Origin: a virus
DNA: 64,000 nucleotides
IMG/VR virus record: IMGVR_UViG_3300035703_000036
Location: 32,001 to 96,000 of that record
Strand: one strand, 5' to 3'
Within the stretch, counting starts at the first letter, position 1; every line of letters begins with the position of its first letter. The translations under genes and the position numbers were made by a program. The notes beneath the pieces were generated by a model. It was not told the DNA's origin, did not search any database, and worked only from the letters and a program-made list of their open reading frames with translations. Below are positions 4,907-58,835 of the stretch, piece after piece.

Positions 4907-4916
4907 GCAATCTTTA
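4907..4916 (+). promoter_or_regulatory. GCAATCTTTA motif (candidate late promoter)
   Basis: Intergenic, 20 nt ahead of a structural-type gene; recurs before other structural operons. Confidence 0.6.
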
Positions 4917-4936
4917 AGGTAACTAATTGGAATTAT

Positions 4937-6316
4937 ATGGCTTTAACTCAAGACGAAAGAATCGCTTTATCTAAAAAAATTATCGACATTCCTAGGGAAA
5001 ATGCTCAGGCCGATTTGATTAAAGATCAAATTAACGAAGGACTGATTAAAGCCCAGAATCAAGATAGTGCTAATAAATCGTTGCAAGACGATAAGACTTC
5101 CCTTATTAATGGATATCAATTAGAAATTACTAGGTATGATGGAAATACTAGAACAACAGTTCTTGAGCAAGATATCATTGACTCGGCAAATAAAATTAAA
5201 CAAAACGCTTTTTTCCCTAATGATTTATCCATTCCTTTGCCATCCGTAGCTGATGGGGTTTGGAAAAATTTCATTCCTTTTAGTAGAGGTAAGGCAATAG
5301 GTAAAAATTATTTAGAAGTCTATCCTTCAGTGATTCAGAAAGAGCAAGATCTTATTAATATTATAAATGGCTACATTTCTACTATGGAAACCTATTCTGG
5401 AATCGGAAGAAGTACAGGGCAAAAATGCACCACAACTAGCGGCTCCTGCTCCTTGCCGATTTACACTACTCAGCCTACTTGTGTTGCTGGCGGAGGGATT
5501 TGGACAGCGGGTTCAGACGTTATTGCTGCCGATCCATTAATTCAAGCTACGGCTACTTCTTTGGTTACAGCTATAAATGACTGGAAAACTTTTATTCAAG
5601 CAACCGACGCCGTTATTATCACGACAGATCCTAATTCTACAAGGCAAAATCAAAACAATATTTCAAAAAACAATATTTCAAGTACGGTTGTAGTTATTAA
5701 TAATTGGTCAGCTTTGCCTAATTTTGATACTTCTCATGGACAGACAACTTGTGTTGGATTTAACTCCTATGACCCAAATTTATTGGCAGCTACAAAATTC
5801 AGATCTGCCGAATTGCAACTAATCAAAAATCAGATAACAAATAGAGCGAATTTTATTGTCACAAGAATTTCGGAAATAAATGTTAATTTAGGATCAATTA
5901 ATCAAGATATGTCTAATGGGTCATTAATATCTGCTTCTGGATTGTACGGAGATAGGCTAAGAATAATTGATTTAAGACTTAATTTAATGTCCGGATCTTT
6001 AAATAAAGTCTATGCGATACAAAGAGGTCAAGGCGCTCAAGATGAGTTAAAATCTTCAAATGCAAATGCTCTTCTTGTATATTCTTCTGTAATGGTGGCT
6101 TCTGCTTTTAAAGCCCCATCAATAGGATCTGATAAAATTCATCTTGAAAGTATTACAGGACTTAACGTAGGAGATTCGGTCTATGTAGTTGCTGAAGATC
6201 AGCAGGAAATTTCCGCTGATATTTTGGCTATTTCTGGACTAATGGTAACTCTAAATAAGGTTATACCTCAAAAATACACCAGATCAAATAGATCCAGACT
6301 ATACAAAATAGTCTAA
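4937..6316 (+). CDS. Putative virion structural protein
   Basis: S/T/N-rich composition like the tail genes; preceded by GCAATCTTTA. Confidence 0.55.
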   Translation: MALTQDERIALSKKIIDIPRENAQADLIKDQINEGLIKAQNQDSANKSLQDDKTSLINGYQLEITRYDGNTRTTVLEQDIIDSANKIKQNAFFPNDLSIPLPSVADGVWKNFIPFSRGKAIGKNYLEVYPSVIQKEQDLINIINGYISTMETYSGIGRSTGQKCTTTSGSCSLPIYTTQPTCVAGGGIWTAGSDVIAADPLIQATATSLVTAINDWKTFIQATDAVIITTDPNSTRQNQNNISKNNISSTVVVINNWSALPNFDTSHGQTTCVGFNSYDPNLLAATKFRSAELQLIKNQITNRANFIVTRISEINVNLGSINQDMSNGSLISASGLYGDRLRIIDLRLNLMSGSLNKVYAIQRGQGAQDELKSSNANALLVYSSVMVASAFKAPSIGSDKIHLESITGLNVGDSVYVVAEDQQEISADILAISGLMVTLNKVIPQKYTRSNRSRLYKIV

Positions 6317-6621
6317 TCCTGATTTAAATCTTCGCCCATGTACTTTAAATTTTCGTATTTTTGATAAACTTTATTTTTTATTTTTGCGTATTCTTTTTCA
6401 TAATAATACTGATCTATTTTTCCGCCACTTTTTAGCTCAGCATCTAGTTTCAAATACAGAAAAGCGCACTCTTTTTCATAAACATCTTTTAAATAATTTT
6501 CTACAACTAAAAGAAGTTTATCTTCGGATAGCTCACTATATCCGTTGTGCTTTTTAAATCTTTCGTAAAATAAATCTACGTAAAGTTTAAAGTCAATTGG
6601 ACGGAAATCGTTTTTCGACAT
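6313..6621 (-). CDS. Hypothetical protein
   Basis: Last gene of antisense island. Confidence 0.55.
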   Translation of the reverse strand: MSKNDFRPIDFKLYVDLFYERFKKHNGYSELSEDKLLLVVENYLKDVYEKECAFLYLKLDAELKSGGKIDQYYYEKEYAKIKNKVYQKYENLKYMGEDLNQD

Positions 6622-7171
6622 AATTTTTCTCTAAAGCAGCATCAAAAAGTTCATCCAGATAATACTGGTAATGTTCATTTAAACAGTAATCACTAATTTG
6701 AATCGGGTGCATTAAAGAAGAAGGGCAGTAATCCGGTAACATTCCTCTAACTTTAATTAAGCCTAGTTTCATTAAAAAAGCCTCAATTTCTCCCCATAAA
6801 TCACCTCTTTGTTCGGCGGTATGAGGTCTATTTAAGATACAATGACCAAGCTCATGAAACATCAAAGATACTCTTTGTTCGCTAGATTGATTTTTTTCCC
6901 ACCAATCTTTATTGATATGAATTTCCTTGATCCAAGGGTAGCATGTTCCTATTACATTTTGTTCGTCATTAAAAGATCTAAAACCAATTGTTAAATTTTT
7001 TAGATGAGCCGGCTTAATCCTACCTCTTGACACAAAAACAAATTCTTTTACATAGCTAGAAGCTTCTTCGTCGATTTTGTCATATCTTTTTTTAAATACA
7101 ATTTTATTTGAACAAGAAGTGCTAAATAACATCAATATCATGAAAATAATAATTTTAATTCTATTTACCAC
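6593..7171 (-). CDS. Lipoprotein zinc metallopeptidase (metzincin-like)
   Basis: Lipobox-like STSC; HELGHCILNRPH and Met-turn SLMHP. Confidence 0.8.
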   Translation of the reverse strand: MVNRIKIIIFMILMLFSTSCSNKIVFKKRYDKIDEEASSYVKEFVFVSRGRIKPAHLKNLTIGFRSFNDEQNVIGTCYPWIKEIHINKDWWEKNQSSEQRVSLMFHELGHCILNRPHTAEQRGDLWGEIEAFLMKLGLIKVRGMLPDYCPSSLMHPIQISDYCLNEHYQYYLDELFDAALEKNYVEKRFPSN

Positions 7172-7316
7172 ATCTTTTCCTTACTTTTCTGCAATTTTGA
7201 CAAGTGTTAGATCTACTTCCGTGTTTGTTATACCAAGTATGTCCAAAAAGATGACACTGACTCTTTTTAAGAGCCACAAAACATATTATTAAACCTAATA
7301 TTTTTGTTAATGTCAT
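7161..7316 (-). CDS. Small Zn-binding protein (DUF1660-like), 51 aa
   Basis: Manual translation ...CHLFGHTW...CQNC; ATGA overlap with phoH stop. Confidence 0.65.
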   Translation of the reverse strand: MTLTKILGLIICFVALKKSQCHLFGHTWYNKHGSRSNTCQNCRKVRKRCGK

Positions 7317-8788: not shown

Positions 8789-8828
8789 TAAAGATTGCGA
8801 GTCACAATCTTTACATTGATATCAATAT
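8789..8828. promoter_or_regulatory. Divergent pair of CAATCTTTA motifs (near-palindrome) plus GATATCAATAT element
   Basis: TAAAGATTG-cgagtca-CAATCTTTA between divergently transcribed genes. Confidence 0.65.
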
Positions 8829-8866: not shown

Positions 8867-11515
8867 ATGGCAAAGGGATTATTTCCAAATCTTAATAATA
8901 GTATAAATAAAGCCTTGGGTATTCAAGGGTCTACTAATATTGGAACTAATAAAAAAGCGCCTTGGGAAAATTGGAACGGCTCTAATACTGATGGCGATAT
9001 TTTTTTTAGTCCTTGGGTTATTAAACCTGAAAGATGGAATAAAACTTTTCCATATAGGTTATTAGTTTATGACGTAAGTAAAGGCGCAATAGTTGCCGGA
9101 TCTAGTGGATCTGGAAATGTTACTAATGAATACTCATACTTAGAAGGTAATGGATTTATTCTTTCTCAAGAGGCTGCTGATCCAAATTGGATTTATAATT
9201 TTCAATTAACTCCTCAGCAATTCACTGTCGCCGATCAATATTCAATAAATACTACATCAACTATGAGAGGGATTGTAGAAGAACATAATGGTGTAAAATT
9301 TAAAAATGTAACTATAGCCGGTACTACGGGTGTGTGGCCTAAAAAGCCTACAATTGCTGGAACCCCAAAAGCTCCCTCGTTTTTAGGTAGCGCTTTAGGC
9401 GGAACTTTAGAAGCTACAAAAAAACTTAATGAATCTTTGTCAAGAATTGCAAATGCCGCTACCGGAAAACATCCAAGCGGTTCTACAAATTGGGATAAAC
9501 CTGAAGATTTAGGACAAATACAGTCTACTGGATATTACCAAGCTTTATTGTTAAGTCAATTTTTAGAAAGATATGCTCAAGCAAAGAAGAATCCAGAAAA
9601 TAAATCTTGGAGATTAGTTTTAGATAATCCAAAAGAAAATCAATCTTTTGTTGTTACGCCTATAAATTTTTCTTTACAAAAAAACCAACAACATCCTCAC
9701 ATGTATAATTACAGTCTTCAATTGAAGGCTTGGAAAAGAATCAATTTAAGCATACAACCGATTGATCCTCCTACTTTTCAAGGAATTGATGCTAATTTCT
9801 TGCAAAGAATGAACTCTACAATCAGAGAAACCAGAAGAGCCTTATCTAATTCTATTAATCTTATAAAAGCAGTCAGAGGTGATTTTCAAGGGCCTTTAAA
9901 TACTTTAAGACAAACAGCTTTGGCCGTAAAAGATCTTGGCGGATTAGCGTTCACAGCCGCAGATTTGCCTCGACAAATTCAAAATGATTACAAAAGCTCT
10001 CTAAAAGACGCTTTATACATAACTAGAAATTCCTTCAAAAGAGATTCTACACAAAGAGCTAATCAAGGTACAGGCGGCGCAAGCTCATCTTCTTTAAAGA
10101 ATTCCAGCTCTACTGTTAGAGCGGCAGCGGCAGTTAGCGCGATCACTTCGGATAAACTGACTCATGAAGGAGTTTCAGATTCTTTCGTTGCTTCAGGCGC
10201 GTTGGGAGTGGGAGCTTCTCAGTTAAATCAAGTAGATCCTTTAAATAACATATTTCAAAATCCTGAAGAAAATTTTGAGTTATTTGATTCGGTTAATCTA
10301 GACTCCTTAACTTTAACCCCAGAACAGACTCAAAGAATTGAAGATGAAATAGAAAATATTAGACTTATAAATATCGATGATCTAAGAAATTTCAGAAATA
10401 CAATAGAATCTCTTGCGTATGATATTGCAAATAATTTTGGAGCCGGAGATAGTACTTACGCGTATGTCTACGGTAAGCCTACGCCTAAAACAAGAATTTT
10501 TGAAATGACTACAGAAGAAAACGAGCTTTTAACTTATTTATATGAAACTATACAATGTTACGATGTATTGACAGCAACATTATCTTGGGATGATATTAAA
10601 ATTGAATCTCCTCTAGGATATGTTGGCGGAATAGCTAAAGATGCAGGTTTAACTTTTAATGATTCTTCATCAAAATTCCTAGTTCCTGTGCCATTTGGAC
10701 TAACTATTGAGGCAATTGCAGCCAGATATCTTGCAAATCCTGACAGGTGGATAGAAATAGCTACTTTAAATAATTTAAGATCTCCATATATTGATGAAAC
10801 CGGCTTTACTTATAGCTTCTTATCTAATGGAGATGGAAGACAGTTTAATGTTGACGACAGTTCGCAGAAGCTTTATATAGGTCAAAGAATAGTCCTTCAA
10901 AGCGATACCGTTCCTCAATTTATCAGAAATGTGGTATCAGTAGAAAAAATTAGCGATACTAATTATCTCATTACAGTGGATGGGTTGGCAAATTTAGATT
11001 CCCTAACTACAATTGGAAATGCCAGAATGAGGGGTTATTTGCCGGGCACTGTTAATAGTCAAAATCAAATATACATACCTTCTGATGCGCCTTCTGATCC
11101 TGACGATAGAGTTAAAAAAATAGATGCTTTTTCTGAAGATAAATTAGTTAAAATATCCAAAGTTGATTTTTTGATCACTGATGACGGAGATCTAGCTCTA
11201 AACTCTTTAGGAGAATTTAGACTTGCGGCCGGATTAAACAATCTAATTCAGGCTTTAAAAATAAAGGTAAAAACTAAAAAAAATACTTTATTAAATCATC
11301 TAGATTTTGGCCTAGGATTAACTCAAGGAATATCTGTGGCCGATATTGAGGCTGGAGAATTAATAAATGAATTCAATAGAATAATAAAACAAGATCCCAG
11401 ATATTCTAGAGTTTCTAGGATACAAATTAAAGTTCAGCCCCCACAAATAACTATCGATATGGCGGTAGAAGTGGCGAATGGCAACGGGGTAATTCCTATA
11501 AGTTTTACTGTTTAG
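8867..11515 (+). CDS. Baseplate hub/tube-initiator-like protein fused to LysM and gp25-like wedge domains
   Basis: LysM-like TIEAIAARYLANPDRWIEIATLNNL; C-terminal GDL...GLNNLIQAL...H.DFG gp25 pattern; directly upstream of baseplate J. Confidence 0.7.
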   Translation: MAKGLFPNLNNSINKALGIQGSTNIGTNKKAPWENWNGSNTDGDIFFSPWVIKPERWNKTFPYRLLVYDVSKGAIVAGSSGSGNVTNEYSYLEGNGFILSQEAADPNWIYNFQLTPQQFTVADQYSINTTSTMRGIVEEHNGVKFKNVTIAGTTGVWPKKPTIAGTPKAPSFLGSALGGTLEATKKLNESLSRIANAATGKHPSGSTNWDKPEDLGQIQSTGYYQALLLSQFLERYAQAKKNPENKSWRLVLDNPKENQSFVVTPINFSLQKNQQHPHMYNYSLQLKAWKRINLSIQPIDPPTFQGIDANFLQRMNSTIRETRRALSNSINLIKAVRGDFQGPLNTLRQTALAVKDLGGLAFTAADLPRQIQNDYKSSLKDALYITRNSFKRDSTQRANQGTGGASSSSLKNSSSTVRAAAAVSAITSDKLTHEGVSDSFVASGALGVGASQLNQVDPLNNIFQNPEENFELFDSVNLDSLTLTPEQTQRIEDEIENIRLINIDDLRNFRNTIESLAYDIANNFGAGDSTYAYVYGKPTPKTRIFEMTTEENELLTYLYETIQCYDVLTATLSWDDIKIESPLGYVGGIAKDAGLTFNDSSSKFLVPVPFGLTIEAIAARYLANPDRWIEIATLNNLRSPYIDETGFTYSFLSNGDGRQFNVDDSSQKLYIGQRIVLQSDTVPQFIRNVVSVEKISDTNYLITVDGLANLDSLTTIGNARMRGYLPGTVNSQNQIYIPSDAPSDPDDRVKKIDAFSEDKLVKISKVDFLITDDGDLALNSLGEFRLAAGLNNLIQALKIKVKTKKNTLLNHLDFGLGLTQGISVADIEAGELINEFNRIIKQDPRYSRVSRIQIKVQPPQITIDMAVEVANGNGVIPISFTV

Positions 11516-11544
11516 TGTTAATATTATGTAAATGAGGTTTATAT

Positions 11545-14500
11545 ATGGCTGATCAACCAAAAGTTAAAAGTAGAGAGCAAATTTTAGGAGAAATGTTAGC
11601 TACATTTTTGTCTAAAACAGGTATTAACGATCTTAACGTAGGGTCTGTTAACACTTCATTTTTTGAAACAATGGCTCAGGCTATTTATAGAGCTTCTGGA
11701 GATACCTTATCTATATTAAGAGATTTTTCAGTAGATAGAGCTACGGGCGAGGCTTTAAAAAGAATTGCTACAGAAGAAAGAATTTATCCAAAATCAGCAA
11801 GAGTGGCTACTGGAAAGGTTACTATTATTGATACTTCTTTTGAAAAAATTTCAACAAAAATTTATGCAGGAGCCAACTCTCCAAACGTAGGATCTTCAAT
11901 GATTCTAGTTTCTGACGCTTCTCTTTTTACTCCTGCTGGAGCTATCTATATTGGTAGAGGAACTCCAAATGTAGAAGGGCCTATTTCGTATTCATCAATA
12001 ACGCCAGTTGGAGGATATTATCAAATTAATTTATCTACTCCAACAACTAAATTTCATAATATATCTGAATCGGTAGTACTTTCTCAAGGTGGGCTTAGAA
12101 ATATTTCAGTAGGAACCTCAGTAAGAGCGCCGGCTACAGGCGATACTGATGATATCGTTTTTTCTGTAACATCTGCTGCTGTTATTTTGGACGGAGAAAA
12201 TCAAATTTCAAATGTTCCAGTCGCTGCTCAACAGCCTGGCACTGAAGGAAACGTTCCGAGAGGTGCTATTAGAGAGTTTGTGTCTCCTCCTTTTACTGGA
12301 GCTTCCGTTATCAATGAATCTCCTTTTTCTACTGGTAGAAATGAAGAAACCGATGAAGAATTAAGAGATAGAATTAAGAGATCTCGCATATCAAAAGGGC
12401 TAGGTACTTCTATTGCAATTAAAAATGCGGTACTAGGCGCTCAAGCTACAGATGAAAGCGCAGTAGTTTCATCAGACGAAATATTTTCTTTTGGATCAGA
12501 CAACACAGTTCTTTATGTAGACGATGGAACTGGATATGAAGAAAAATCTTCTGGAGTAGGATTAGAATTTATAATAGATTCAGCTCTTGGTGGAGAACAG
12601 TATTTTCAATTAGCTACTGGTGGTAGACAGACCTCTATTTCTAAAGCCACTTTAGAGTCTATTCAGGATGGGCCTTTTGATATTATTCCTACAGATAGAT
12701 TAGCTATTTTGGTCGGCGGAGTTTTAAGCGAACATATATTTAATTCAGGAGATTTTAGAAGTGAAGGTTTTGCTACGGCTTATGAAGTCGCAGCAAGTAT
12801 CAATTCAAATTCTTCTTTAACTTTTTCGGCTTCAACTTCTTCAAATGGAAAAAGAGTAACTATTCAGGCTAAAACCGAATCTAATGAAGAGCTTTTAATT
12901 ACATCTCCCACAACTGGAAGAAATGCCGGAATTGCTTTATATTTTCCTTCAAACGAAATTCAAACTTTAAGACTTTATAAAAATAATAAACCTCTAAGCA
13001 AAAACGGTCAATCTGCTATTATTGAAAGTAGAAATCAAAGCGATTGGTCTAGCACTATTGGATCAGGAGATACATTAATAATTTCTGTAGATAATACAGC
13101 TTCAATTACATATTCATTTACGGATGCTGATTTCCTAGCTGAAGGAAACTATATATCAGTAAATAAAAACAATTCCCTTCAATCTTGGATTAATGTTATT
13201 AATAAAAAAGTTACCGGAGTAACCGCTTCTATAGATGGAAATAAAATAAAAATAATATCCAATAAAGGCGCAAATTCTACGGCTGCTTTATCGATCGATG
13301 TATTATCAACTCTAGTAAGTAAAGGGATGTTTAGCGTATCTACAGGCCTAGTTTCTTCAGGAAAAGCTGCGGATTTTATCGTATCTAGAAATACAGCCCA
13401 AATCAAACTGACCAGCCCTTTAGAAGCTGGAGATAGCTTGGCGGCAGGTTCTGAATTTACAAAAGGATATATTTACAGTTCGCCTATTTTAGGCGGAAAT
13501 TTGACTTTAACATCTGATGCTTATTTGTGGCTACTAATAGATAATGCGGACGCTGAAATTATTAGTACTGGAGTAGTTGGAGATACATTAGTAGATGTTT
13601 CTAAACCTTTTGCCAATATAGTTAGATATACATCCAACTCACCTTCAGCATTTGCAAATGTGCAAGTTGGGGATACGGTTATTGTATGGTCTAATGAATT
13701 GAGCTTAGGAAATAGGCTTGAAGCTAAAGTTTACGCTAAAACTAATACTACTCTAGATATTAAGGTAACTTCAGCAGAATACGCTGCCGCTGTAGTGGAA
13801 TCTGCAATTGTTTTTAAAGAAGGTTTTGTAGTTATTAGAACAGACAAGGCTGTACAAAAAATAAAAATTGCTTCTGGGGCTTATAACATCAATACTATAG
13901 TTTCAATTATTAATTTACAATTAATAGGGGCTACATCTTCCGTAATTGGAGATGAGATTATTAATATTACGACTGATAGCGAAGATATCTATGGTTGTGT
14001 TTTATTGGTAGCTCAAAATGATGCTGGTAAAGGTCTTAATTTTACTTTAGCATCTTTTGCTAAAACTGAATTTTCTCAATTTGCTTTTTATGAAGCTAAA
14101 AATGCAGATAGCTATTTTCCGGCTTTTGTTCATTCTAAAATAACCGATGATAATTTTGCTGACGTACCAAATTCTTTTATCACAAGTTTTAATTCTGCCG
14201 TAGTATTAGCTTCTGAAAATATTGATCCTAATTTTATGGTCTGTCCAGTAAACCCTTTTAGCCCTGTTGCTGATAATATATCGGACAATGAATGTGTTCA
14301 AATTAAAAATTTAAGCTCTAATACTGTAAACATCAATCAGAGTCCTTTAATTAGAAGATTAAGAATAGACGATAGATTTTATGCCGCTCTTCCTTTTGAT
14401 TTTGGATATAATGATTCTGTTGTGGTAATTCTTGATGCTGACGCTACTAATAAAACTTTTCCTATACCGCTATATAGAAAAGCAATAGTGAATAATACTA

Positions 14501-17500
14501 TGCCTGTAAGCGCAAATAATTTCAGAGCCTATGATTCTGATTCTGGGCCTACTACTCAATTTTCTCAATTTTTTGGATCTTCTTATAGTTTTGATAACTA
14601 TAAAGTTCTAATGCAAGCTAAAAATGCTATCAATCCTGCTTCAAATACTATCAACGAAGACTCTATACTATTTAGAAGTGCTAGATGGGGAAAAGATGGA
14701 GAAAGAATTAATGTAGGATATTCTTATCCAACATCTTCTAATCTAGGTATTTCTCATACAATCATAGTTGATTCTATGATTAATATAAAAATATCTTTAA
14801 AATCAAACGGAATAATTCCAAATACTATTGATGGCACTACAGAATGGGATGTGACTGTAACGCCAAATACCCCTGTAGCAGGAGTTGATTCAGTTACCTA
14901 TTCTTGGAATAGTATAGGAACAGATCCTGCAATGACAACTCTAAGTCCTGATCACTACGTTACAATAAACTCTTTAGGAGATTTTAGTCCGGAAAATATC
15001 GGAACTTTTAGAGTAGACTCTGCCACTTCAACATCTTTTACAGTTTTAAGGCCTAATGGCGTAGCTGTAAATGAGTCTGCAATTGCAACTTTAACTACTA
15101 ACACCATTTCCTTATATCAGAATAATAGTACGACTGCTCAGGAAATTGTAAGTTATGTAAACTCAAATCTTTCTGATTATATCTCAGCGTCTATTCTTGA
15201 TGATAATGGAGTTTCTGGGGCTGGTATAATTAATAAAAGTACTTATGAAGATACCAATTTTGCTAATGAAGGCGTAGATTTATTTGATGGAATTAATTGG
15301 ATTCTTTCGACTAATCTGTCTGCTCTTTCTCCTAGTCAACAATTTTCTTTTAAAAAATCTTTAACCATACCTAGCATCAATACCGCTACATCGGGGGCTT
15401 ATAATTTTACGGACGGAGAAGAATTAAGACTTATTCCTACGACATCAAAACAAATTAGTGAATTAATATCTACTTTAGCCGTTTCAGGTTTTACAACTTT
15501 AGGATCTGTATCAAGTTCAAATAGAGAGAGTCAATTACAAATATCTAGTCAAATATTAGGATCTAACGGAGCCGTTCAGGTAACAGGAGGAACGGCTAAT
15601 TCTGTTTCTGCTCAAGTTATAGGGCAATCAAGCAAAGTTTCTGGAACTGACTATATTAACGTCTCAGTTTTAAGATCTCAAGCGTCAGGCTTGCATGTAG
15701 ATCAAATGGTTAAATTGAGCGCGTTCTATTCTCAGAAAAAAGAAACTGGAATTAGTGAGACAACAGGTGTTACAATATTAAATAATCAGCCGACATTAGG
15801 TCAGGCTATTGTTGAATTATCGAATAGAGAAGCTCAAGATAATTATTTTGGAATTCCAAAAAATTGTTTTAGAGATAGATCTAGAGCTTTTCATGTGGAA
15901 AAACAAGGGGCGTTAGTTTGCGTATCTTGGGATGAATCTACTGGAGGAAACCCGATTTTTAATAAATTAGTTGAAATAAATGACGGCGGCGGTGGATCTT
16001 TATCGGTAGATTTTGACGCTAATTTAGGCGTGACATATTACACTGTAGCTTCAGGGAATATTAGATTTTTTGAAGTAAATAAGGGTGACAAACTAACTAT
16101 ATCAGTACTAGCTGACGCTCAAAATAATGGAACTTTTAATATTTTAGGAGTTTCTGAAGACGGCCTAACGATCGCTACCGATAATACTTCAGGATTAGAT
16201 GCCTTACCTTCAGCAATAGCCCCAAATGATATCGCAATAAATACCGAAGTTCAAGAGGGTGATACAGTTTCTATTTCTTCTCCTTTTTCTATATTAAATC
16301 AAGGAAATTTTAGAGTTATTAGAAAATATCAAAATAGTTTTTATATTGATAACCCATCTGCTGTAGAAGAAAGAGTGATTATTTCTGATAATTTGCAATC
16401 GTTAAATTTCGATGCTACAACTCAGTTTGATGTTTCAATATCTGACGGATCAATGAAAATTTCTTGGAATGGAGTTGGAACTGAGCCTAGTTTAAACAAT
16501 GCTAAATTAGGAAATATTTTAAGAGTAGGATCTGCTTTTACGGCCAATAATCAAGGCGATTTCATGGTTGTTAGATCAGAAGGAAATCAGTATCAAAAAT
16601 TTGAAATAAATTGTTCTGATGCCGTTTCAATTACAAGCGGACAATATTTTACATTAGATCTTCCAAACGGCGGAACTTCTTATTACGCTTGGTTTAATAA
16701 AGACGGATCAGGCGGAAATCCTTTTCCAATTGGCAAAACAGATATATCTGGAGGATCTGGAATTGTAATTTCCACAGGCGATTCTTCTAGTATAGTAGCA
16801 AATGCAGTTCAGGCTGTTATTGATGCGGTTGTTGGTTTTACATCAACTGTTTCCGGAAATATTGTCACAACAATCTGTGACAATGCAGGGCCTACAATCA
16901 ATGCTGCAAATGTAGACGTTGGCGGAAGCTTCTCTATTGTAATTAAAAAACAAGGCGATTATCAGTTTATTGAATGTGCTAACGCAAAAGCTTTTGCTCA
17001 GTCCGGCATAATGGTATCGGGAGTAGGTCTAGATGTTTTAGAAAGTCATATTCCTTCTCTTATTTTTAGAGAATATGAAGCAGCTATAGCCGGAGATAAA
17101 TTTGTAGTATCAGGAAGCGTATTAGGCTCAAACAATATTTCAGACTATACAATTTATGAAGTTTTAAGTAAAAATAAGATAGTAGTAAGTTCGAATATGG
17201 ACGAAGTAGAAAGTCTAGTTTTAAATTCTGACTATATTCAAGTTTATGTAGAGGAACAAAATCCTTACATTGGTTATAAAAAAATATATTCCATGCTAGT
17301 AGATCCTAGCAATTCAAATAGAATGAATTTAATTTTTGATACAAACAATCAAAGATTAAAAATTAATGACGTAGGAGAAGTTACAATATCTGCAATTGGC
17401 AAGCTATCTTTTTCTGAAGTCGTTAAAAAAGGTCTAGATTCATACCGTTATAATACAGGATTAATTGCCGAAGCAAATAGAATTGTGTACGGAGATCCTA

Positions 17501-17859
17501 GAGATAACGTAACCTACTCAGGTGTAGCGGCTGCGGGCGCTGAAATTTTCATAAAGCCGCCTTTGCCTAGACGTATTACAGTATCTATTAGCGTAAGAGT
17601 TAATACTGGCGTTCCTTTTAATAAAATTTCGGAACAAGTTAGAAGTAATATTGCATCGCTAGTCAATTCTAGCCCTATAGGTCAGTCGATAGCTATCAGT
17701 GATATTGTCGCTACTGTTAATTCCATACCAGGTGTTTTTGCTGTAGCAATCAGCTCGCCTACTTATGATGTATTAAATGATGTTATTGTAGTTAATCCTG
17801 CAGAAAAACCAATTATTATTGATATTGTCAATGATATTACAGTATCAAAGGTCGGATAA
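11545..17859 (+). CDS. Very large baseplate J-like wedge protein (2104 aa)
   Basis: DRATGEAL, A..PG..GNV, G...ETDEELR.RI at N-terminus; J-like C-terminus (IG..I..S.I...V..IPGV). Confidence 0.88.
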   Translation: MADQPKVKSREQILGEMLATFLSKTGINDLNVGSVNTSFFETMAQAIYRASGDTLSILRDFSVDRATGEALKRIATEERIYPKSARVATGKVTIIDTSFEKISTKIYAGANSPNVGSSMILVSDASLFTPAGAIYIGRGTPNVEGPISYSSITPVGGYYQINLSTPTTKFHNISESVVLSQGGLRNISVGTSVRAPATGDTDDIVFSVTSAAVILDGENQISNVPVAAQQPGTEGNVPRGAIREFVSPPFTGASVINESPFSTGRNEETDEELRDRIKRSRISKGLGTSIAIKNAVLGAQATDESAVVSSDEIFSFGSDNTVLYVDDGTGYEEKSSGVGLEFIIDSALGGEQYFQLATGGRQTSISKATLESIQDGPFDIIPTDRLAILVGGVLSEHIFNSGDFRSEGFATAYEVAASINSNSSLTFSASTSSNGKRVTIQAKTESNEELLITSPTTGRNAGIALYFPSNEIQTLRLYKNNKPLSKNGQSAIIESRNQSDWSSTIGSGDTLIISVDNTASITYSFTDADFLAEGNYISVNKNNSLQSWINVINKKVTGVTASIDGNKIKIISNKGANSTAALSIDVLSTLVSKGMFSVSTGLVSSGKAADFIVSRNTAQIKLTSPLEAGDSLAAGSEFTKGYIYSSPILGGNLTLTSDAYLWLLIDNADAEIISTGVVGDTLVDVSKPFANIVRYTSNSPSAFANVQVGDTVIVWSNELSLGNRLEAKVYAKTNTTLDIKVTSAEYAAAVVESAIVFKEGFVVIRTDKAVQKIKIASGAYNINTIVSIINLQLIGATSSVIGDEIINITTDSEDIYGCVLLVAQNDAGKGLNFTLASFAKTEFSQFAFYEAKNADSYFPAFVHSKITDDNFADVPNSFITSFNSAVVLASENIDPNFMVCPVNPFSPVADNISDNECVQIKNLSSNTVNINQSPLIRRLRIDDRFYAALPFDFGYNDSVVVILDADATNKTFPIPLYRKAIVNNTMPVSANNFRAYDSDSGPTTQFSQFFGSSYSFDNYKVLMQAKNAINPASNTINEDSILFRSARWGKDGERINVGYSYPTSSNLGISHTIIVDSMINIKISLKSNGIIPNTIDGTTEWDVTVTPNTPVAGVDSVTYSWNSIGTDPAMTTLSPDHYVTINSLGDFSPENIGTFRVDSATSTSFTVLRPNGVAVNESAIATLTTNTISLYQNNSTTAQEIVSYVNSNLSDYISASILDDNGVSGAGIINKSTYEDTNFANEGVDLFDGINWILSTNLSALSPSQQFSFKKSLTIPSINTATSGAYNFTDGEELRLIPTTSKQISELISTLAVSGFTTLGSVSSSNRESQLQISSQILGSNGAVQVTGGTANSVSAQVIGQSSKVSGTDYINVSVLRSQASGLHVDQMVKLSAFYSQKKETGISETTGVTILNNQPTLGQAIVELSNREAQDNYFGIPKNCFRDRSRAFHVEKQGALVCVSWDESTGGNPIFNKLVEINDGGGGSLSVDFDANLGVTYYTVASGNIRFFEVNKGDKLTISVLADAQNNGTFNILGVSEDGLTIATDNTSGLDALPSAIAPNDIAINTEVQEGDTVSISSPFSILNQGNFRVIRKYQNSFYIDNPSAVEERVIISDNLQSLNFDATTQFDVSISDGSMKISWNGVGTEPSLNNAKLGNILRVGSAFTANNQGDFMVVRSEGNQYQKFEINCSDAVSITSGQYFTLDLPNGGTSYYAWFNKDGSGGNPFPIGKTDISGGSGIVISTGDSSSIVANAVQAVIDAVVGFTSTVSGNIVTTICDNAGPTINAANVDVGGSFSIVIKKQGDYQFIECANAKAFAQSGIMVSGVGLDVLESHIPSLIFREYEAAIAGDKFVVSGSVLGSNNISDYTIYEVLSKNKIVVSSNMDEVESLVLNSDYIQVYVEEQNPYIGYKKIYSMLVDPSNSNRMNLIFDTNNQRLKINDVGEVTISAIGKLSFSEVVKKGLDSYRYNTGLIAEANRIVYGDPRDNVTYSGVAAAGAEIFIKPPLPRRITVSISVRVNTGVPFNKISEQVRSNIASLVNSSPIGQSIAISDIVATVNSIPGVFAVAISSPTYDVLNDVIVVNPAEKPIIIDIVNDITVSKVG
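16590..16950 (+). repeat. Copy of a ~110-aa module shared with the 21045 gene
   Basis: ITSGQYFT...YY.WFNKDG.GG.P.P.GK...AANV.VGGSFSIV. Confidence 0.8.
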
Positions 17860-17860
17860 T

Positions 17861-19459: not shown

Positions 19460-19460
19460 T

Positions 19461-20961: not shown

Positions 20962-20969
20962 AGGAATAA

Positions 20970-20993
20970 TAATCTTTAATGTGATATCAATAT
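20970..20993 (+). promoter_or_regulatory. AATCTTTA-N4-GATATCAATAT element (candidate late promoter)
   Basis: Same sequence and spacing as 8806-8828. Confidence 0.65.
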
Positions 20994-24890: not shown

Positions 24891-24926
24891 GTAATCTTTA
24901 AATTAATCGTTCGATCGCAATCTTTA
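24891..24926 (+). promoter_or_regulatory. Tandem GTAATCTTTA / GCAATCTTTA motifs
   Basis: 24891-24900 and 24917-24926, intergenic ahead of 24962. Confidence 0.65.
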
Positions 24927-29834: not shown

Positions 29835-29844
29835 GCAATCTTTA
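29835..29844 (+). promoter_or_regulatory. GCAATCTTTA motif
   Basis: Intergenic ahead of tail fibre gene. Confidence 0.6.
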
Positions 29845-36309: not shown

Positions 36310-36319
36310 CCTATCTACA

Positions 36320-37036
36320 ATGAATATAGATCAGTGGTTTAACCCTACACACGGACTTGAGCTAGAGCCTGATATTAATTTTGGCTCTAGAAATAACGAA
36401 AATGGAATACTGTTCTATTGTGTTTATATCATTTTATTAAAAGAAAGAAGAGAGCTATCGGTAGACGAAATTAATAGACTGGTATTTCTTTTAGAAGATC
36501 TTGAATCCTACGATAAAAACGGAAATAGAATAAGAGGATTGTACGATCGAGGAGCTAGGGAATCTTTAACAATTCCTTACGACAAAAGAAGAACAATCTC
36601 TCACGATAATATCACAGCTATCTCATCTTTATCCCCAGATCATGCTAAAGATATTTACAAGTATGGTTTAAAGCATTTCTTTATATACAATAACTGCAAG
36701 CCAAGATTGAGGGCTCCAATGAACCCTTCAAATTGGTCTATCTGGTCATACAATGGCGGATCTAAGTTTTTTTGGATGTTATTCGCATGGATATATGTCA
36801 TTAACATGCTCATATCTTGTAATAAATCTCCAAAAGAAACTTCTTCAAAGCAGCTTTATTTTGTAGAATTATACAACGTAAAAGAAAGTAACTTATTTTG
36901 GAAATTGTGCTGGAAATATTACAAAAGAAAAATGACTAAACAATATGGTGAATTTTGGCTTCATGAAATAGCTAAAATATACTATCAACATCCGGAACAT
37001 CCTAATCGTATCCTGTCTGAAGGAATGAGGTTTTAA
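36320..37036 (+). CDS. Hypothetical, probably helical enzyme-like protein
   Basis: NENG, SHDN segments; function not recognised. Confidence 0.6.
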   Translation: MNIDQWFNPTHGLELEPDINFGSRNNENGILFYCVYIILLKERRELSVDEINRLVFLLEDLESYDKNGNRIRGLYDRGARESLTIPYDKRRTISHDNITAISSLSPDHAKDIYKYGLKHFFIYNNCKPRLRAPMNPSNWSIWSYNGGSKFFWMLFAWIYVINMLISCNKSPKETSSKQLYFVELYNVKESNLFWKLCWKYYKRKMTKQYGEFWLHEIAKIYYQHPEHPNRILSEGMRF

Positions 37037-37531: not shown

Positions 37532-37532
37532 A

Positions 37533-43779: not shown

Positions 43780-43784
43780 TTCAA

Positions 43785-44675
43785 TTATACCACATTTCTC
43801 ATATCTTTCAAAAGACGTCGTGCTATTTTTACTTCTTCCTTAAGAGTATCATTTGTCGCATGGTCATAAATGAACTTATTTAACATTTTTCTTTTGCTTT
43901 TTTTATCGAAATTTTGAAATTTCCTTTCTAAAGCCTCAAATTCCACCTCTTTCTGAAGAAACGAACATGCGATTTCAGGATCTTCATAGTAGATATTTCT
44001 AGACATAAAGGCTTCTTCATGCTCTTCTACCGTAAGACTTCTCGGCATTTCCTCATAAATATGAACTTTAAAGCCTTTATCGTCAAACATCTCCCCATAC
44101 TCGCCTTTAGGCTTTTTCTTAATCTCTTTAAATTCATTCTGAGTTACAACTCTAAATCCATATTTCTTAGGCTCTTTAGCAACCATATAAATATCAACTT
44201 TCTTTGACTTGTCAGTCTCAGCCAAATAGATCTTTACGTGAGATCCTCCCAATATATTTCTTCCTTTCCTCACAAAAACTAGGCAGCAATGGTACAATTT
44301 TTGTCTTAAAAAATTAATAAGGTTATTCCTTTCAACCCTATTAACTTCTTCTTTGGGAGGGTGGGCATCCTTGCCGTGCTTAGCTTTATACTTCATCAGG
44401 AACTTTTCCATAGCTTTTTCATTGTGCCTTAAACTATATAGGCTCATATAATATATGGCATACATATTTGAAATAGAAATCAAATCTTCCATCTCAAAAC
44501 CAACAATCCTCATAACATTATGATTTTGTTGATAAATTATCTCGGTAGTATTCCAAATAATCCCCCTATATTCTCTAATATAGGAGCCATCCATTTCAGC
44601 TATTCTTCCGGCCAAATCATGCCTCAAATACAGCTCCTCAAAATTATCATCAAATGTTTTTTCTCTTTTAGCCAC
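43785..44675 (-). CDS. Putative divergent sigma-factor-like protein (region 2-like; start moved to GTG 44675)
   Basis: YRGII...GFEMEDLIS and NLINFLRQKL resemble sigma 2.1-2.4; AAGGAG RBS. ORF is secure, function tentative. Confidence 0.4.
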   Translation of the reverse strand: MAKREKTFDDNFEELYLRHDLAGRIAEMDGSYIREYRGIIWNTTEIIYQQNHNVMRIVGFEMEDLISISNMYAIYYMSLYSLRHNEKAMEKFLMKYKAKHGKDAHPPKEEVNRVERNNLINFLRQKLYHCCLVFVRKGRNILGGSHVKIYLAETDKSKKVDIYMVAKEPKKYGFRVVTQNEFKEIKKKPKGEYGEMFDDKGFKVHIYEEMPRSLTVEEHEEAFMSRNIYYEDPEIACSFLQKEVEFEALERKFQNFDKKSKRKMLNKFIYDHATNDTLKEEVKIARRLLKDMRNVV

Positions 44676-45051: not shown

Positions 45052-45099
45052 AAAACCTCCGATATTGATATTATATCAGAAAATTATAAAAATTTCTAT

Positions 45100-45128
45100 A
45101 AAAAAGTGGGCTTTCGCCCACTTTTTTT
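45100..45128. terminator. Bidirectional intrinsic terminator
   Basis: AAAAAGTGGGC-TTTC-GCCCACTTTTT. Confidence 0.9.
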
Positions 45129-46056
45129 ATGCTGCCATCTCAACTGCCGTGTTAAGGGCTCTTTCTAGGATCGTTTTTGACTGACCAAACCAAAGATTGT
45201 TTAGTCTTGTCTGGGCGTCAGTACCTCTTTCGTATTGAAGGTATTCTGAAACGCTATTATAAGCCGCCCAATATGTACCCTTAATTTCTCTCATATCGTT
45301 TCCGCGGCCCTTTTCAAAAAGCGGAATAATGTTGCTTAGTAGCTTCTTGCCTGAATCTTCTTCTTCCAATTTGAAGACTAATTTAATAAACTTCTCTAAA
45401 TCTTTTCCATTGATATCTTTATTAGCAAGAAATTTATACTGGGCCAATGTAGCTTCAAAAGCGTTATTAGCTAGATTCATAACTTTACCGATAGCCTCAA
45501 GATTCTCTTCAACTTTTTGAGAATGCTTAATACGGATCAGTTGAGACTCGCCATTGTGATGAGCCATGCTTAAAGTATTTTGACAAACTACTCTCTGAGG
45601 AGTAAATCCAGCTCTTACTGCCATAGTTCCATCATGGCTATTAGAAAGTAGAATGTAGCGCTCAATAACGTCATTACCTTTAACTACGTCAAGGTCAGAT
45701 TTAATTTTTGCTTGTACCCAAACTCTCTTACCTTTCATAAGAGATCCGGCAGTTTCAATCTGTGCCATTCCAGACTCAACGAATGGATTAAAGAAGTCAA
45801 AAGCATTTTTATTCTGTAATGGCTTGTAGTTATTTCCAACAACTCCAAGGATAGAGTTGTCAGAATCACGCACATTCGCCATAGCCGGAACATCTCTTCC
45901 GTCATCTAAATAGATTTTCTTTGTAGAAACAGTCCAATCAAGTCCTGCGGCTACCATAGCTTCTTCAAGAGTTTTAGGCGCCTCAATAAAGCGAGATCCA
46001 AGGTTGTGCCAAGGTGTTGCTCCTACATACATCATTTCTTCTACCATGTGTGCCAT
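45127..46056 (-). CDS. DUF932 (TIGR03299-type) phage/plasmid protein
   Basis: PWH.LG, LGVVG..Y.PLQN, ETAGSL..G, NSHDG, RVVCQNT. Confidence 0.9.
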   Translation of the reverse strand: MAHMVEEMMYVGATPWHNLGSRFIEAPKTLEEAMVAAGLDWTVSTKKIYLDDGRDVPAMANVRDSDNSILGVVGNNYKPLQNKNAFDFFNPFVESGMAQIETAGSLMKGKRVWVQAKIKSDLDVVKGNDVIERYILLSNSHDGTMAVRAGFTPQRVVCQNTLSMAHHNGESQLIRIKHSQKVEENLEAIGKVMNLANNAFEATLAQYKFLANKDINGKDLEKFIKLVFKLEEEDSGKKLLSNIIPLFEKGRGNDMREIKGTYWAAYNSVSEYLQYERGTDAQTRLNNLWFGQSKTILERALNTAVEMAA

Positions 46057-46718: not shown

Positions 46719-46979
46719 TTAATTATTTACGATTTGATAGGCGTCAAGCATAAAATCGATTACCATTTGCTCAGTCAAAGCATTCCAATAGCACATTTCT
46801 GATTTACTTCCTAGCCATTTAATATTAAAAAGTTTATCTTCAGCTCTATAAAAGACAGTAACATTACATACTATATCAAAAACCTTACAGTCAACAACGA
46901 TAACTGATCCTTGTTTTTTAGCAAGGCGAATATCTTGCTTAGCAAATCTTGTAAGAGATTTTTTAAGTGATGCTTCCAT
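46719..46979 (-). CDS. Hypothetical early protein
   Basis: AAGGAG RBS; own promoter. Confidence 0.7.
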   Translation of the reverse strand: MEASLKKSLTRFAKQDIRLAKKQGSVIVVDCKVFDIVCNVTVFYRAEDKLFNIKWLGSKSEMCYWNALTEQMVIDFMLDAYQIVNN

Positions 46980-56037: not shown

Positions 56038-56061
56038 AATACCTCTTACCCTATTATACCA

Positions 56062-56280
56062 TTATTTTATATTAATGCAATCTCTTATTTTATTCACCGC
56101 TGATTGAAATATATCTTCAACTTCTTTTTCAGAGATCATGAGGGCTTTAGCGATTTTGTCGTTATCTAATCCATCTGGATTTTTTTGAATTAATAATTTT
56201 AACGAGTTATTTAGTCTAGGATAGTAGATAAAATCTTCTTCATTTTCAATTCTTAATCTAATCTTGTCCGTTACCGCCAC
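56062..56280 (-). CDS. Stand-alone sigma70 region-4-like HTH protein (start moved to GTG 56280)
   Basis: GLDNDKIAKALMISEKEVEDIFQSAVNKIR; AAGGA RBS. Confidence 0.6.
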   Translation of the reverse strand: MAVTDKIRLRIENEEDFIYYPRLNNSLKLLIQKNPDGLDNDKIAKALMISEKEVEDIFQSAVNKIRDCINIK

Positions 56281-56659
56281 TTTCCTTTTTTCTGAAGAGC
56301 AGGACAACTTTTTCTTTTTCTCTGTTTTTGTATTCATTTTCATATTCCTTTGCAATTAATTCATACTCTCTTTGAAGCTTGTCTAATCTGTTGGCGATTT
56401 TATTTCTAACTGAAGTTATTTTTTCAAGTTTTTGCCTTACAAAATCTAATTCTATTATTGACTTCCTATACTCAGAGGCCACAGTTATTATTTCTGGTTT
56501 TTTAAGCAGGGTAATATTGTCTATAAGAGTGTCTATTAATTTAGACATATAAGCAATGTCTTCGTTATAACTTAGCAGGTCTTGTTCCATTATATTTAGC
56601 TCTATTTCCATAGCTATTAATCGTCCTGCTAAATCTTTAAATTTTTGTTTATCACTCAT
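56258..56659 (-). CDS. Coiled-coil protein
   Basis: Heptad pattern. Confidence 0.65.
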   Translation of the reverse strand: MSDKQKFKDLAGRLIAMEIELNIMEQDLLSYNEDIAYMSKLIDTLIDNITLLKKPEIITVASEYRKSIIELDFVRQKLEKITSVRNKIANRLDKLQREYELIAKEYENEYKNREKEKVVLLFRKKESGGNGQD

Positions 56660-56981: not shown

Positions 56982-57032
56982 ATTTTCCCTGCCATTTATA
57001 AAATATTACCATAAAACAGCATTTTAAAAACT

Positions 57033-57057
57033 AAAAAGCCCCTTTCGGGGCTATTTT
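57033..57057. terminator. Intrinsic terminator
   Basis: AAAAAGCCCC-TTTC-GGGGCTATTTT. Confidence 0.85.
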
Positions 57058-58266
57058 TTATTCATTTGGATTTAAGCAAATGGGAAAACTTCTAAAAAAT
57101 GATCTTTTACGAGTCTTAGGTTCTACATAATAATTCAGTACTTGAATAGCTTCTGAAGCAAAACCTTTATTCTCAGCATAATTATCTTGACCAGGCACAG
57201 ATCCATTAACAATCATTCTACCTCTGGCATATACCGTGTATTCATGCCAGTGCCCTACCCTATAGTAATCTACGACCTTATTAATCTGATTACCTCGTTT
57301 AGACATCAGATTTTGAATGGTATCCCTATTTAGATTCTTAAGCTCGTCTCCATGTTCATAGACTACTGTGTTACCATATATTTCAGTCTGTAAATACAGC
57401 CCTAAAGCAATCTTAAACTTAACATGCTTAAAACCCGCCTGTACACACATGATTTCTAATGTTTTATAGATAATATATGTCAGGTTTTCTTCGCCAGGAT
57501 CATTATAGCTTTTATGATCTTCAGGTCGATCATGATTTCCTGTTACGCAAGGAATCTCTACTTCGATACCTAACGGAGCGGTAGCTATAGCGATAGGCTT
57601 AATTAAATCTTCAAACATAGATTCGATGGCTACGGCAGTTTGTTTTGAAGAACTAAATTCACTAGACTTTCTAGACTCTTGACCATGAAAGTGAGCGTTT
57701 TCGATAATATCTCCAATCATAGCGATAATGATTTTATGAATATTAAAAGACTTACTTTCTCTTTGGACTTCATCAAGAACTACCTTGGTGATTTTGCTAA
57801 CTCTTTGCCTAATAACGGAAGCGTCTACTTGATTATTTTCAATACTTTTAATAAGTTTTCCATAGTGGACATCTGAAAAAAGAAGTTCAAGGGTCATATT
57901 TCTTTTACCCTTGACCGAGCTTTTTTTAGCTTTATTAATCTTTACCTTATTAATTCTTGAAACAACACCCTTGATCTCATCCATAAGATCTTCGCGCTTA
58001 GTAAGGTAGTCCGTTAAGATCCTATTTTCTTTAGCAGTTTCAGATTTAACCTTTTTTTGTCTAAAAATATCCTTAATATTCTTAACTTGATATTCCTGAT
58101 CAGAGGCTAAATCTCTATACCGATAATATGTTTTCTTTATATTATCGGCAGTTTTATTCTTTTTAAATCTAGTATTGTAAAGCTCGGCAATCTCATTGAA
58201 TTGGAGACCTTTTTGCTCTCTTTTTTCAATAATAAAAGCGACTTCTTTTTCGTTAAACAATTCCAT
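57058..58266 (-). CDS. HTH plus calcineurin-like metallophosphoesterase
   Basis: DVHYG, GDIIE, GNHD, HGD, GHWH; N-terminal FNEIAE helix-turn-helix. Confidence 0.85.
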   Translation of the reverse strand: MELFNEKEVAFIIEKREQKGLQFNEIAELYNTRFKKNKTADNIKKTYYRYRDLASDQEYQVKNIKDIFRQKKVKSETAKENRILTDYLTKREDLMDEIKGVVSRINKVKINKAKKSSVKGKRNMTLELLFSDVHYGKLIKSIENNQVDASVIRQRVSKITKVVLDEVQRESKSFNIHKIIIAMIGDIIENAHFHGQESRKSSEFSSSKQTAVAIESMFEDLIKPIAIATAPLGIEVEIPCVTGNHDRPEDHKSYNDPGEENLTYIIYKTLEIMCVQAGFKHVKFKIALGLYLQTEIYGNTVVYEHGDELKNLNRDTIQNLMSKRGNQINKVVDYYRVGHWHEYTVYARGRMIVNGSVPGQDNYAENKGFASEAIQVLNYYVEPKTRKRSFFRSFPICLNPNE

Positions 58267-58268
58267 AT

Positions 58269-58835
58269 TTATCCTTGCTGATTTTGATCCTGTTCAAAAT
58301 TAAGGTTTTTTTCCGTTTCAACAATTTTATAAAGTTCAGTAATTTCTGTAGAAACTTCAGATTTATCTGTAGTAATAATATCGCCTACTTTTTTACCTAA
58401 AATTAATTGCTTATTTTCTTCTCTAAGAGACGGAATAGAGAACTGAAGTCTAGGCACTACAACTTCTCCATTTAAAAGATCTCTAGCAACAACAAAGGAA
58501 TTGCTATTAACAGTTCCTTCTTCATCTTTTACCAATACACCCTGATCAACTAGGAATTTAATTTTTTCTTTTAAATCATTAACTTCATAATCCTCTATCT
58601 TTCTAGTTACCTCGTCATTATTTGCAATATTTTTGTCGGTTAAAACATCTACAATTGCATTTTGTCTGCGAGCTAAAAAAGATAAGTTAACATTGGTACG
58701 CTCAATTTCTTCAGCCATAACCTCGATAGATCTTCTGTCTGCCATCACCAGCTCGTTTAATTGGGCAATTTTGCTTTCTAATTGCTCTAATTTTTGAGCC
58801 GCTGTTAAGTTCGTGTTCTTTTTCTCATTTGCCAT
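58269..58835 (-). CDS. Coiled-coil protein with GreA-C-terminal-like domain
   Basis: C-terminal LILGKKVGD...EITEL; ORF secure, function tentative. Confidence 0.4.
   Translation of the reverse strand: MANEKKNTNLTAAQKLEQLESKIAQLNELVMADRRSIEVMAEEIERTNVNLSFLARRQNAIVDVLTDKNIANNDEVTRKIEDYEVNDLKEKIKFLVDQGVLVKDEEGTVNSNSFVVARDLLNGEVVVPRLQFSIPSLREENKQLILGKKVGDIITTDKSEVSTEITELYKIVETEKNLNFEQDQNQQG

Follow-up and report, generated by a model that had tools for sequence, protein, structure and literature searches.

We examined a 64,000-nucleotide stretch of phage DNA (hereafter the window; bases 32001-96000 of the linear 104,662-bp IMG/VR record IMGVR_UViG_3300035703_000036) and found a short recurring box, AATCTTTA, that stands before virion genes in this phage and in its relatives. 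We propose that this box is probably a late promoter, read by host core RNA polymerase carrying a phage-encoded sigma-like factor, while a 72-amino-acid (aa) phage protein would sit on the polymerase flap. The original prediction, made from the letters of the window, held that phage parts redirect host polymerase to late genes through a two-subunit sigma and a Gre-like factor. Its broader claim held up, as the phage has no polymerase of its own, encodes sigma-like genes and carries a private single-element promoter, whereas the Gre member and the bipartite pairing did not.

The record, with a completeness of 66% by CheckV estimate and a GC content of about 34%, carries genes for a DnaE-type replicase and for myovirus baseplate proteins, one of them J-like and 2104 aa long. 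The sole cultured relative found was Myxococcus phage Mx1 (169.6 kb, GC 55%), with which the replication module is collinear (DnaE, SbcD-like nuclease, ribonucleotide reductase, SbcC-like protein, RecA and SSB). The window phage is probably an Mx1-like myovirus, uncultured, ~150-170 kb in size and reliant on the RNA polymerase of its host. A search with its truncated sigma gene, described below, matched 66 IMG/VR loci, of which 19 are near-complete genomes of 149-177 kb, and the phage therefore belongs to a large, essentially uncultured clade. The 19 near-complete genomes, our reference set of relatives, were thus picked by the truncated sigma; the first relatives, G001 and G002, were found via another gene, that of the sigma-2-like protein, and are fragments without the other genes.

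The motif was originally described in a fuller form, GCAATCTTTA, which occurs in four exact copies in the window (4907+, 8789-, 24917+ and 29835+) against 0.56 expected; at least four copies were reached in 0 of 100 shuffles. The informative core is AATCTTTA. Across the whole record, 8 of 34 core copies are intergenic, co-oriented and no more than 200 nt from a gene start (binomial P 0.011), which taken alone is weak evidence. Nine copies occupy short gaps and point towards the adjoining gene; the genes that follow encode tail-fibre-like, 459-aa unknown, ~1000-aa fibre-like, virion structural and tail-collar-fibre proteins and a baseplate operon, and one divergent box faces a PhoH-like unit. 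The case becomes strong because the relatives show matching placement. In three complete genomes that are 93-96% coding, the core stands just upstream of co-oriented genes in 18 of 48 copies (G005), 14 of 34 (G003) and 21 of 29 (G017), with binomial P values from 4e-8 to 1e-14; all four tests were given a non-coding fraction of ~9-11%. The genes preceded by the box in relatives encode a prohead protease, baseplate proteins, fibres and a protein whose Mx1 homologue adjoins the terminase. In G001, whose sigma-2-like protein shares just 33% identity with that of the window phage, CAATCTTT was the top upstream 8-mer, and its sites include a back-to-back pair before a baseplate gene and a tandem pair, both as in the window phage. 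The claim of a recurring motif before structural operons was therefore sound as regards the conserved core, but did not extend to GCAATCTTTA with one mismatch, which was not enriched in the window (15 vs 10.9).

With equivalent sites in five relatives, we tabulated 68 sites across six genomes, all selected as co-oriented with the downstream gene. The resulting matrix reads AAAA-t-n-R-C-AATCTTTA-n-n-k-T-A and contains no conserved -35 element. The box takes slightly different forms within the clade: CAATCTTTA in G017, GCAATCT in the GC-rich G021, AATCTT in G009, and CAATCTTA, one T shorter, in G018 (166 kb), where 18 of 21 copies stand just upstream of genes, often 4-6 nt from the ATG. Both GCAATCT and CAATCTTA belong to more distant relatives, and the latter is a natural variant that would be useful for specificity tests. 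Most boxes stand 13-35 nt from the start codon and five stand 4-7 nt from it, and many box-bearing gaps hold no other promoter-like element. A text search of the literature for the box returned only unrelated uses of the word, and the Mx1 genome announcement does not discuss transcription; as far as we found, the transcription programme of this clade is undescribed.

These features suggest that AATCTTTA may act as a single -10-type element without a -35 partner. Aligning AATCTT with the -10 hexamer preserves A-11 and T-7. The placement of +1 relative to AATCTT leans on established sigma-70 promoter geometry. Transcription would begin ~5 nt past the box, so that a box 4 nt from the ATG would put +1 on the A of the start codon, and some messages would therefore begin at the ATG itself. 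The reader of such a box would be host core polymerase carrying a phage sigma-like specificity factor, for which the genome offers two candidates.

One of these is a truncated sigma encoded ~6 kb past the window end, whose neighbours (a helicase, a small open reading frame (ORF) and a phosphoesterase) stand in the same order as in Mx1. This protein has >700 homologues at 50-58% identity, some of them named sigma subunits by the Joint Genome Institute, and the annotation of its Mx1 homologue reads 'putative RNA polymerase sigma factor'. A single-sequence Pfam search with it was negative. When its family profile was run against the PDB, 58 of 60 among the matches listed were sigma factors, the best at E 5e-4 to 1e-3 over regions 2-3, and regions 3-4 of FliA matched at E 0.0055. 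The truncated sigma closes with a 4.1-like helix (...RKVIRLKGVDL, followed by the stop), as do 8 of 8 aligned homologues, Mx1 included; it contains no region 4.2 helix-turn-helix (HTH), and the next gene is unrelated. By its family profile we regard the protein as certain to be a sigma-70 family member with regions 2-3 and helix 4.1, lacking 4.2. The original prediction had named a full-length sigma elsewhere in the genome as an alternative source of the motif; what lies there is a sigma that goes part of the way, with regions 2-3 and helix 4.1.

The other candidate is the product of ORF 43785-44675, originally described as sigma region-2-like. Its gene is real: the family has ~179 cluster representatives of ~300 aa, it is present in 19 of the 19 near-complete relatives, and its profile finds a 541-aa Mx1 protein via the N-terminal part (E 1.5e-27). 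The AlphaFold2 (AF2) model has a predicted local distance difference test (pLDDT) score of 82, rising above 90 over residues 30-130. With an aligner independent of Foldseek and 48,161 chains, sigma factors made up ~25 of the best 38 structural rows; all sigma matches fell on residues 23-143, and domain 2 of group-1 sigmas superposed with a root-mean-square deviation (rmsd) of 2.4-2.6 over 67-71 residues. The N-terminal domain (~residues 23-143) is predicted to have a sigma-domain-2-like fold with a ~35-aa insertion and a long last helix carrying a conserved FLRQ. The insertion lies between ED(L/I) and FLRQ, two motifs that are kept even in the Mx1 and G021 homologues, from which the insertion is absent, bringing them nearer to canonical spacing; conservation within the family peaks in the motifs that occupy the places of regions 2.2 and 2.3/2.4. 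Next come an alpha/beta domain and three C-terminal helices, the helices drawing only scattered structural matches and residues 147-296 showing no sigma-like features. Searches of Pfam with 98 family members gave no HTH family match, in agreement with the earlier claim that the protein has no obvious region 4. No match was found by tblastn in 50,697 phage records, by Foldseek with the AF2 model against BFVD and the PDB, or to helicase-loader families in Pfam and PHROG. Judging from the model, it is rather likely that the protein has a real sigma-2-type polymerase-binding domain; the resemblance holds at the level of fold, but not at that of sequence.

The free region-4-like HTH of the original prediction is a real 72-aa gene with a consistent, though sub-threshold, sigma-4.2 signal. 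Homologues are 67-89 aa long, and the GTG start first proposed for it is therefore supported. The family occurs in 19 of the 19 near-complete relatives, and in Mx1 an unannotated member lies right upstream of DnaE, as in the window phage. In Pfam the protein matched GerE below the cut-off (E 0.01); its three best PDB profile matches were region 4.2 of FliA and of another sigma (E 0.3), and its nearest Atlas clusters were small viral proteins of which 63-83% carry PF04545 (Sigma70_r4), at scores of 0.93-0.94. The equivalent of the recognition helix has the family consensus EEEVExIYQEA, aligned with gesrvsqlhsqa of FliA: the basic or polar helix needed for -35 contact was not found in the family, whose helix is acidic throughout. 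Because this helix is acidic and the late box has no -35, we propose that the protein may read no DNA and instead bind the beta-flap tip, in the manner of sigma region 4 or T4 gp33, and that it would thereby favour promoters that do not need a -35. By analogy, this would be the most economical role for it, and a DNA-reading 'region 4 in trans' is unlikely.

The gene of this small protein overlaps its neighbour in another frame. The coiled-coil ORF 56258-56659 (-) overlaps the start of the open frame 56062-56337 (-), with an A-AAA-AAG heptamer in the overlap; Mx1 has the same arrangement, its sigma-4-like ORF 157458-157727 (-) being largely unannotated in GenBank, with only the upstream end overlapping an annotated CDS. 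A frameshift fusing the two was set aside: shifting by -1 allows four codons before a stop, and the HTH ORF is in the +1 frame. We also rejected ORF 56258-56659 as a sigma in its own right, its weak match to a PHROG 'sigma factor' (E 0.0016) being coiled-coil noise.

Which protein would read the box can be weighed from these data. The truncated sigma comes close to an even chance: its family membership is certain, its conservation is high and matches that of the box, and its region 3 could recognize the conserved R-C that immediately precedes the hexamer. It also appears to be an equal or better candidate as box reader with the small HTH protein as partner. The sigma-2-like protein, for which the analogy with T4 gp55 would speak, is a possible reader with a smaller share, and what is left falls to joint action of the two or to neither. 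All three families are found in 19 of the 19 near-complete relatives and in Mx1, and their genes do not differ in promoter type; neither co-occurrence nor expression class can thus tell them apart. The pairing of ORF 43785-44675 with the free HTH stands as far as both being core genes goes, but the truncated sigma is equally core. Comparing the box forms CAATCTTA (G018) and CAATCTTTA (G017) for covariation with either protein was uninformative, as both proteins share only 45-47% identity between the two genomes.

Extended -10 promoters of host type would drive the three sigma-like genes together with the replication genes. The window contains 24 copies of the word TGGTAWWAT, where 4.1 would be expected, which confirmed extended -10 promoters for the replication module, said earlier to use host-type promoters. 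The word stands 15-25 nt before most replication genes (minus strand) and heads the units of the sigma-2-like gene, the small HTH gene and, outside the window, the truncated sigma. Full TTGAC-N17 promoters precede a few small genes and the DUF932 gene, and these TTGAC-bearing promoters are probably the earliest, host-sigma class. We treat the extended -10 class as host-type because its word changes among relatives (TGATATAAT, TGATAGTAT) and because in G021 it carries a TTGAC -35 at 17 nt (6 of 10 sites). TGGTAWWAT had also been considered as the target of the truncated sigma, which without 4.2 would need a TG contact; this was dropped, given that G021 has the -35 and that the word varies by sub-clade. 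The absence of a phage RNA polymerase, claimed for the window, holds more widely: Pfam searches found no match to PF00940, PF00623 or PF00562 in the 104.6-kb record, and in the 19 near-complete relatives no match to PF00623 and none above the cut-off to PF00940. The 2104-aa ORF was ruled out as a crAss-type virion polymerase and is a baseplate wedge/J-like protein.

The Gre-like member of the original prediction, ORF 58269-58835, is a real and conserved gene, present in 18 of the 19 near-complete relatives and with a 166-aa counterpart at its position in Mx1, but the Gre fold was not confirmed. Its beta-rich domain has the conserved motifs F-V-V-G-R-E, P-R-x-Q-F and L-x-G-K-K-x-G-D, and homologues often bear an acidic Pro/Ala-rich tail. 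No Gre family was matched in Pfam by the protein or by 19 family members, none in a Gre profile scan of the genome at E up to 1, and none in a PDB profile search at E up to 10. In hhalign against E. coli GreA, only LxGKKxGD aligned, to LIGKEEDD...EVI (probability 2.3%, 31 columns), and the Atlas ESM model fell nearer to trigger-factor/FKBP clusters (template modelling (TM) score 0.35-0.38) than to the GreA cluster (0.33). The AF2 model built from the single sequence was of no use (pLDDT 61, one long helix at 12-97, C-terminus unmodelled). The protein thus appears to resemble Gre in domain order and one motif only, and a part for it in the transcription system is not supported; we regard it as a conserved protein with no demonstrable role there.

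Several observations weigh against the late-promoter system proposed here. The promoter function of AATCTTTA is putative, being argued from its placement, and AATCT is not enriched in Mx1, which has all three sigma-like genes. We found one clade-constant, phage-specific box for two sigma-like proteins, and one protein is therefore left with no assigned target; co-occurrence, moreover, cannot separate the candidate readers or partners, all being core genes. As for ORF 43785-44675, it has no sequence match in Pfam, PHROG or the PDB; 0 of 98 family members match the sigma families of Pfam, the family profile found nothing relevant in the PDB, and hhalign against the phage's own sigma family gave a probability of 0.1%. 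Its position at the head of a helicase-primase block makes a role in replication possible.

This last point underlies one alternative, namely that ORF 43785-44675 encodes a replication protein, such as a helicase loader or initiator, which merely resembles sigma domain 2, and that the truncated sigma, with or without the HTH protein, reads the box. The gene lies between the DUF932 gene and genes for a DnaB-like helicase and a primase, its Mx1 homologue lies between a primase-helicase and a primase, and both the lack of sequence similarity to sigma factors and the featureless residues 147-296 agree with such a role. The structural comparison argues otherwise, as sigma factors supply ~25 of the best 38 rows among 48,161 chains and superpose over the whole domain-2 core (rmsd 2.4-2.6), the positions of regions 2.2 and 2.3/2.4 are where the family is most conserved, and helicase-loader families are unmatched too. 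We consider this alternative a tentative one that deserves to be kept in view. The two-subunit sigma of the original prediction, in which ORF 43785-44675 and the HTH protein read GCAATCTTTA with help from ORF 58269-58835 in the secondary channel, draws on the same sigma-2-like fold and on the sigma-4-like signal of the small protein. The three families are all core to the clade, and their genes share a promoter type and the replication module; ORF 58269-58835 has the Gre domain order of a helical N-terminus and then a beta domain with LxGKKxGD, and both the hhalign motif alignment to E. coli GreA and the GreA cluster listed by the Atlas (TM 0.33) can be cited for it. We nevertheless judge it unlikely. 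The late box offers no -35 for a region 4 to read, the recognition helix of the HTH protein is acidic, and the truncated sigma, which ends just before 4.2 in every genome, is the more obvious partner for that protein. The Gre component lacks Pfam and PDB matches, reached an hhalign probability of 2.3% and is outranked by trigger-factor/FKBP clusters.

A different kind of explanation would take AATCTTTA as the operator of a DNA-binding repressor or activator, or as an RNA-level signal, rather than as a core promoter. Some copies are indeed arranged as inverted repeats (8789/8806 in the window, with its counterpart in G001), but most sites are single and strand-specific, and, where coding sequence fills 93-96% of a genome, 14-21 of 29-48 copies are co-oriented upstream sites. 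The two boxes of the inverted pair are set apart by 7 nt in one genome and 10 nt in another, as expected of two independent divergent promoters; many box gaps contain no other promoter-like element, and a box-ATG spacing of 4-5 nt fits a start at the ATG. Such an explanation is very improbable. Also quite improbable, taken with all its parts, is a split sigma in which the truncated sigma, an acidic flap-binding sigma-4 and the sigma-2-fold protein would act together on a -10-only box to give often leaderless late mRNAs in hosts of 35-60% GC, with ORF 58269-58835 as a Gre-fold factor in the secondary channel.

The late-promoter system that we favour can be compared with known cases. In T4, late transcription employs gp55, a sigma reduced to region 2, the flap-binding co-activator gp33 and the gp45 sliding clamp, and the promoter is a single -10-like element, TATAAATA. 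According to PMC7892883, the last helix of gp55 is long and gp33 has no structural relationship with sigma region 4. Like T4, the window phage has a single 8-bp -10-type box without a -35 before virion genes and encodes the candidate factors among its replication genes; the sigma-2-like domain of ORF 43785-44675 is modelled with an over-long last helix like that of gp55, and by analogy with gp33 a small separate protein could occupy the beta flap. Unlike T4, it shows no sequence similarity to gp55 or gp33 (no PHROG or Pfam match), its small protein carries sigma-4-like sequence signals that set it apart from gp33, it has a second, more canonical sigma, no sliding-clamp gene was identified in it, and its late box has a different sequence. 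Bacillus phage SPO1 runs a cascade from host sigma-A to gp28 to gp33/gp34 (see PMC13401047). There too, several phage sigma-like proteins retarget host polymerase and early promoters are host-type; the window phage differs in having one clade-constant phage-specific box and one sigma without region 4.2, and neither of its sigma-like proteins is detectably related to gp28 or gp34.

Splitting of sigma functions over two polypeptides would be shared with SigO-RsoA, the two-subunit sigma of Bacillus subtilis. In the window phage, however, the break would fall between regions 2-3 and region 4, the promoter lacks a -35, and conventional DNA binding looks beyond the reach of the free region-4-like protein. 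The phage phiEco32 encodes gp36, an extracytoplasmic function (ECF)-like sigma that keeps region 4, and has single-element middle and late promoters. The likeness would lie in a phage sigma-family protein reading one short element on host polymerase, although no sequence relationship between the proteins emerged from the comparison made (no PHROG match). With GreA and GreB, ORF 58269-58835 shares N-terminal helices followed by a small beta domain and LxGKKxGD...EI. Unlike them, it has no profile-level similarity, matches trigger-factor/FKBP clusters as well or better, is modelled by single-sequence AF2 as one long helix and no hairpin, with an unreliable C-terminus, and has homologues with long acidic Pro/Ala tails.

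The features of the window, together with the truncated sigma, are collected in Table 1. Several of the box sites have counterparts elsewhere. For the box at 4907, a possible counterpart in G001, with G replacing the last A, precedes a 434-aa gene. The genes of the window operon 8867-19889 match Mx1 baseplate assembly, J-like and kelch/fibre proteins. The divergent pair at 8789-8813 forms an inverted repeat with a counterpart at 19277-19303 in G001, before a baseplate gene, and its spacer varies between genomes (7 vs 10 nt). On the other arm of this pair stand PhoH-like and metalloprotease-like genes, which would be late genes because a box lies on their arm. Orthologues of the ~1000-aa ORF are also preceded by the box in G017, G005 and G003, and tandem pairs are present in G001 and G005 as well.

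Table 1. Positions of putative late boxes, sigma-like and other genes, and extended -10 promoters (window coordinates unless stated)
Feature	Position	Strand	Context
Late box GCAATCTTTA	4907..4916	+	20 nt before ATG of 459-aa ORF 4937-6316
Late box	8789..8798	-	Faces minus-strand unit 8776-6313, including PhoH-like gene; back-to-back with 8804-8813
Late box aCAATCTTTA	8804..8813	+	Before baseplate operon 8867-19889
Late box	20969..20978 (core 20971-20978)	+	Before ~1000-aa ORF 21045/21207-24185
Tandem late boxes	24891..24926 (cores at 24893 and 24919)	+	Before virion structural protein gene 24962-26656
Late box	29835..29844	+	Before tail-collar-fibre-like gene 29907-32108, then 1381-aa ORF
Core copy gGAATCTTTA, status uncertain	36559..36568	+	In gap or within ORF 36287-37036, by start codon chosen
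296-aa sigma-2-like protein	43785..44675	-	Likely GTG start at 44675, after AAGGAG
Extended -10 promoter TGATATAAT	45070..45078	-	Before ORF 44686-45051 and sigma-2-like gene
72-aa stand-alone sigma-4-like four-helix protein, acidic 'recognition' helix	56062..56280	-	Overlaps end of coiled-coil ORF 56258-56659
Extended -10 promoter TGGTAATAT	57003..57011	-	Head of unit containing sigma-4-like gene
188-aa core protein	58269..58835	-	Long N-terminal helix/coiled coil; C-terminal beta-rich domain with LxGKKxGD (FKBP/trigger-factor-like)
Truncated sigma, 346 aa	L003:6191-7231 (window-equivalent 70191-71231)	-	Own TGTGGTATAAT promoter

A further extended -10 promoter, TGGTATAAT, lies at 43784-43792 (-), across the final codons and stop (43785-43787) of the sigma-2-like gene, and is directed at a 152-aa ORF and the helicase gene. 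The promoters with a TTGAC -35 (~17 nt) form a third set, noted for 39465-39761, 45127-46056 and 46719-46979 of the window and for 29893 and 31927 of the genome. An HNH endonuclease gene at 62593-63252 (-) adjoins the ribonucleotide reductase genes, and a 499-aa ORF at 39861-41360 (-) weakly matches a ~190-aa Clp-protease-like protein of Mx1 (E 5.5e-12).

Phage takeover of host transcription is understood in few models: T4, SPO1, T7, phiKZ/AR9, P23-45 and Xp10. The clade described here is widespread, with dozens of near-complete genomes of 150-177 kb, and its box stays constant while the host-type promoters change with the host. It combines a sigma naturally without its -35-reading part, a free sigma-4-like module and a second sigma-2-fold protein. 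Its sigma-like proteins are compact candidates for studying sigma splitting and enforced -35-independent initiation. The late box, in turn, offers an immediate handle for annotating late operons in genomes of this clade.

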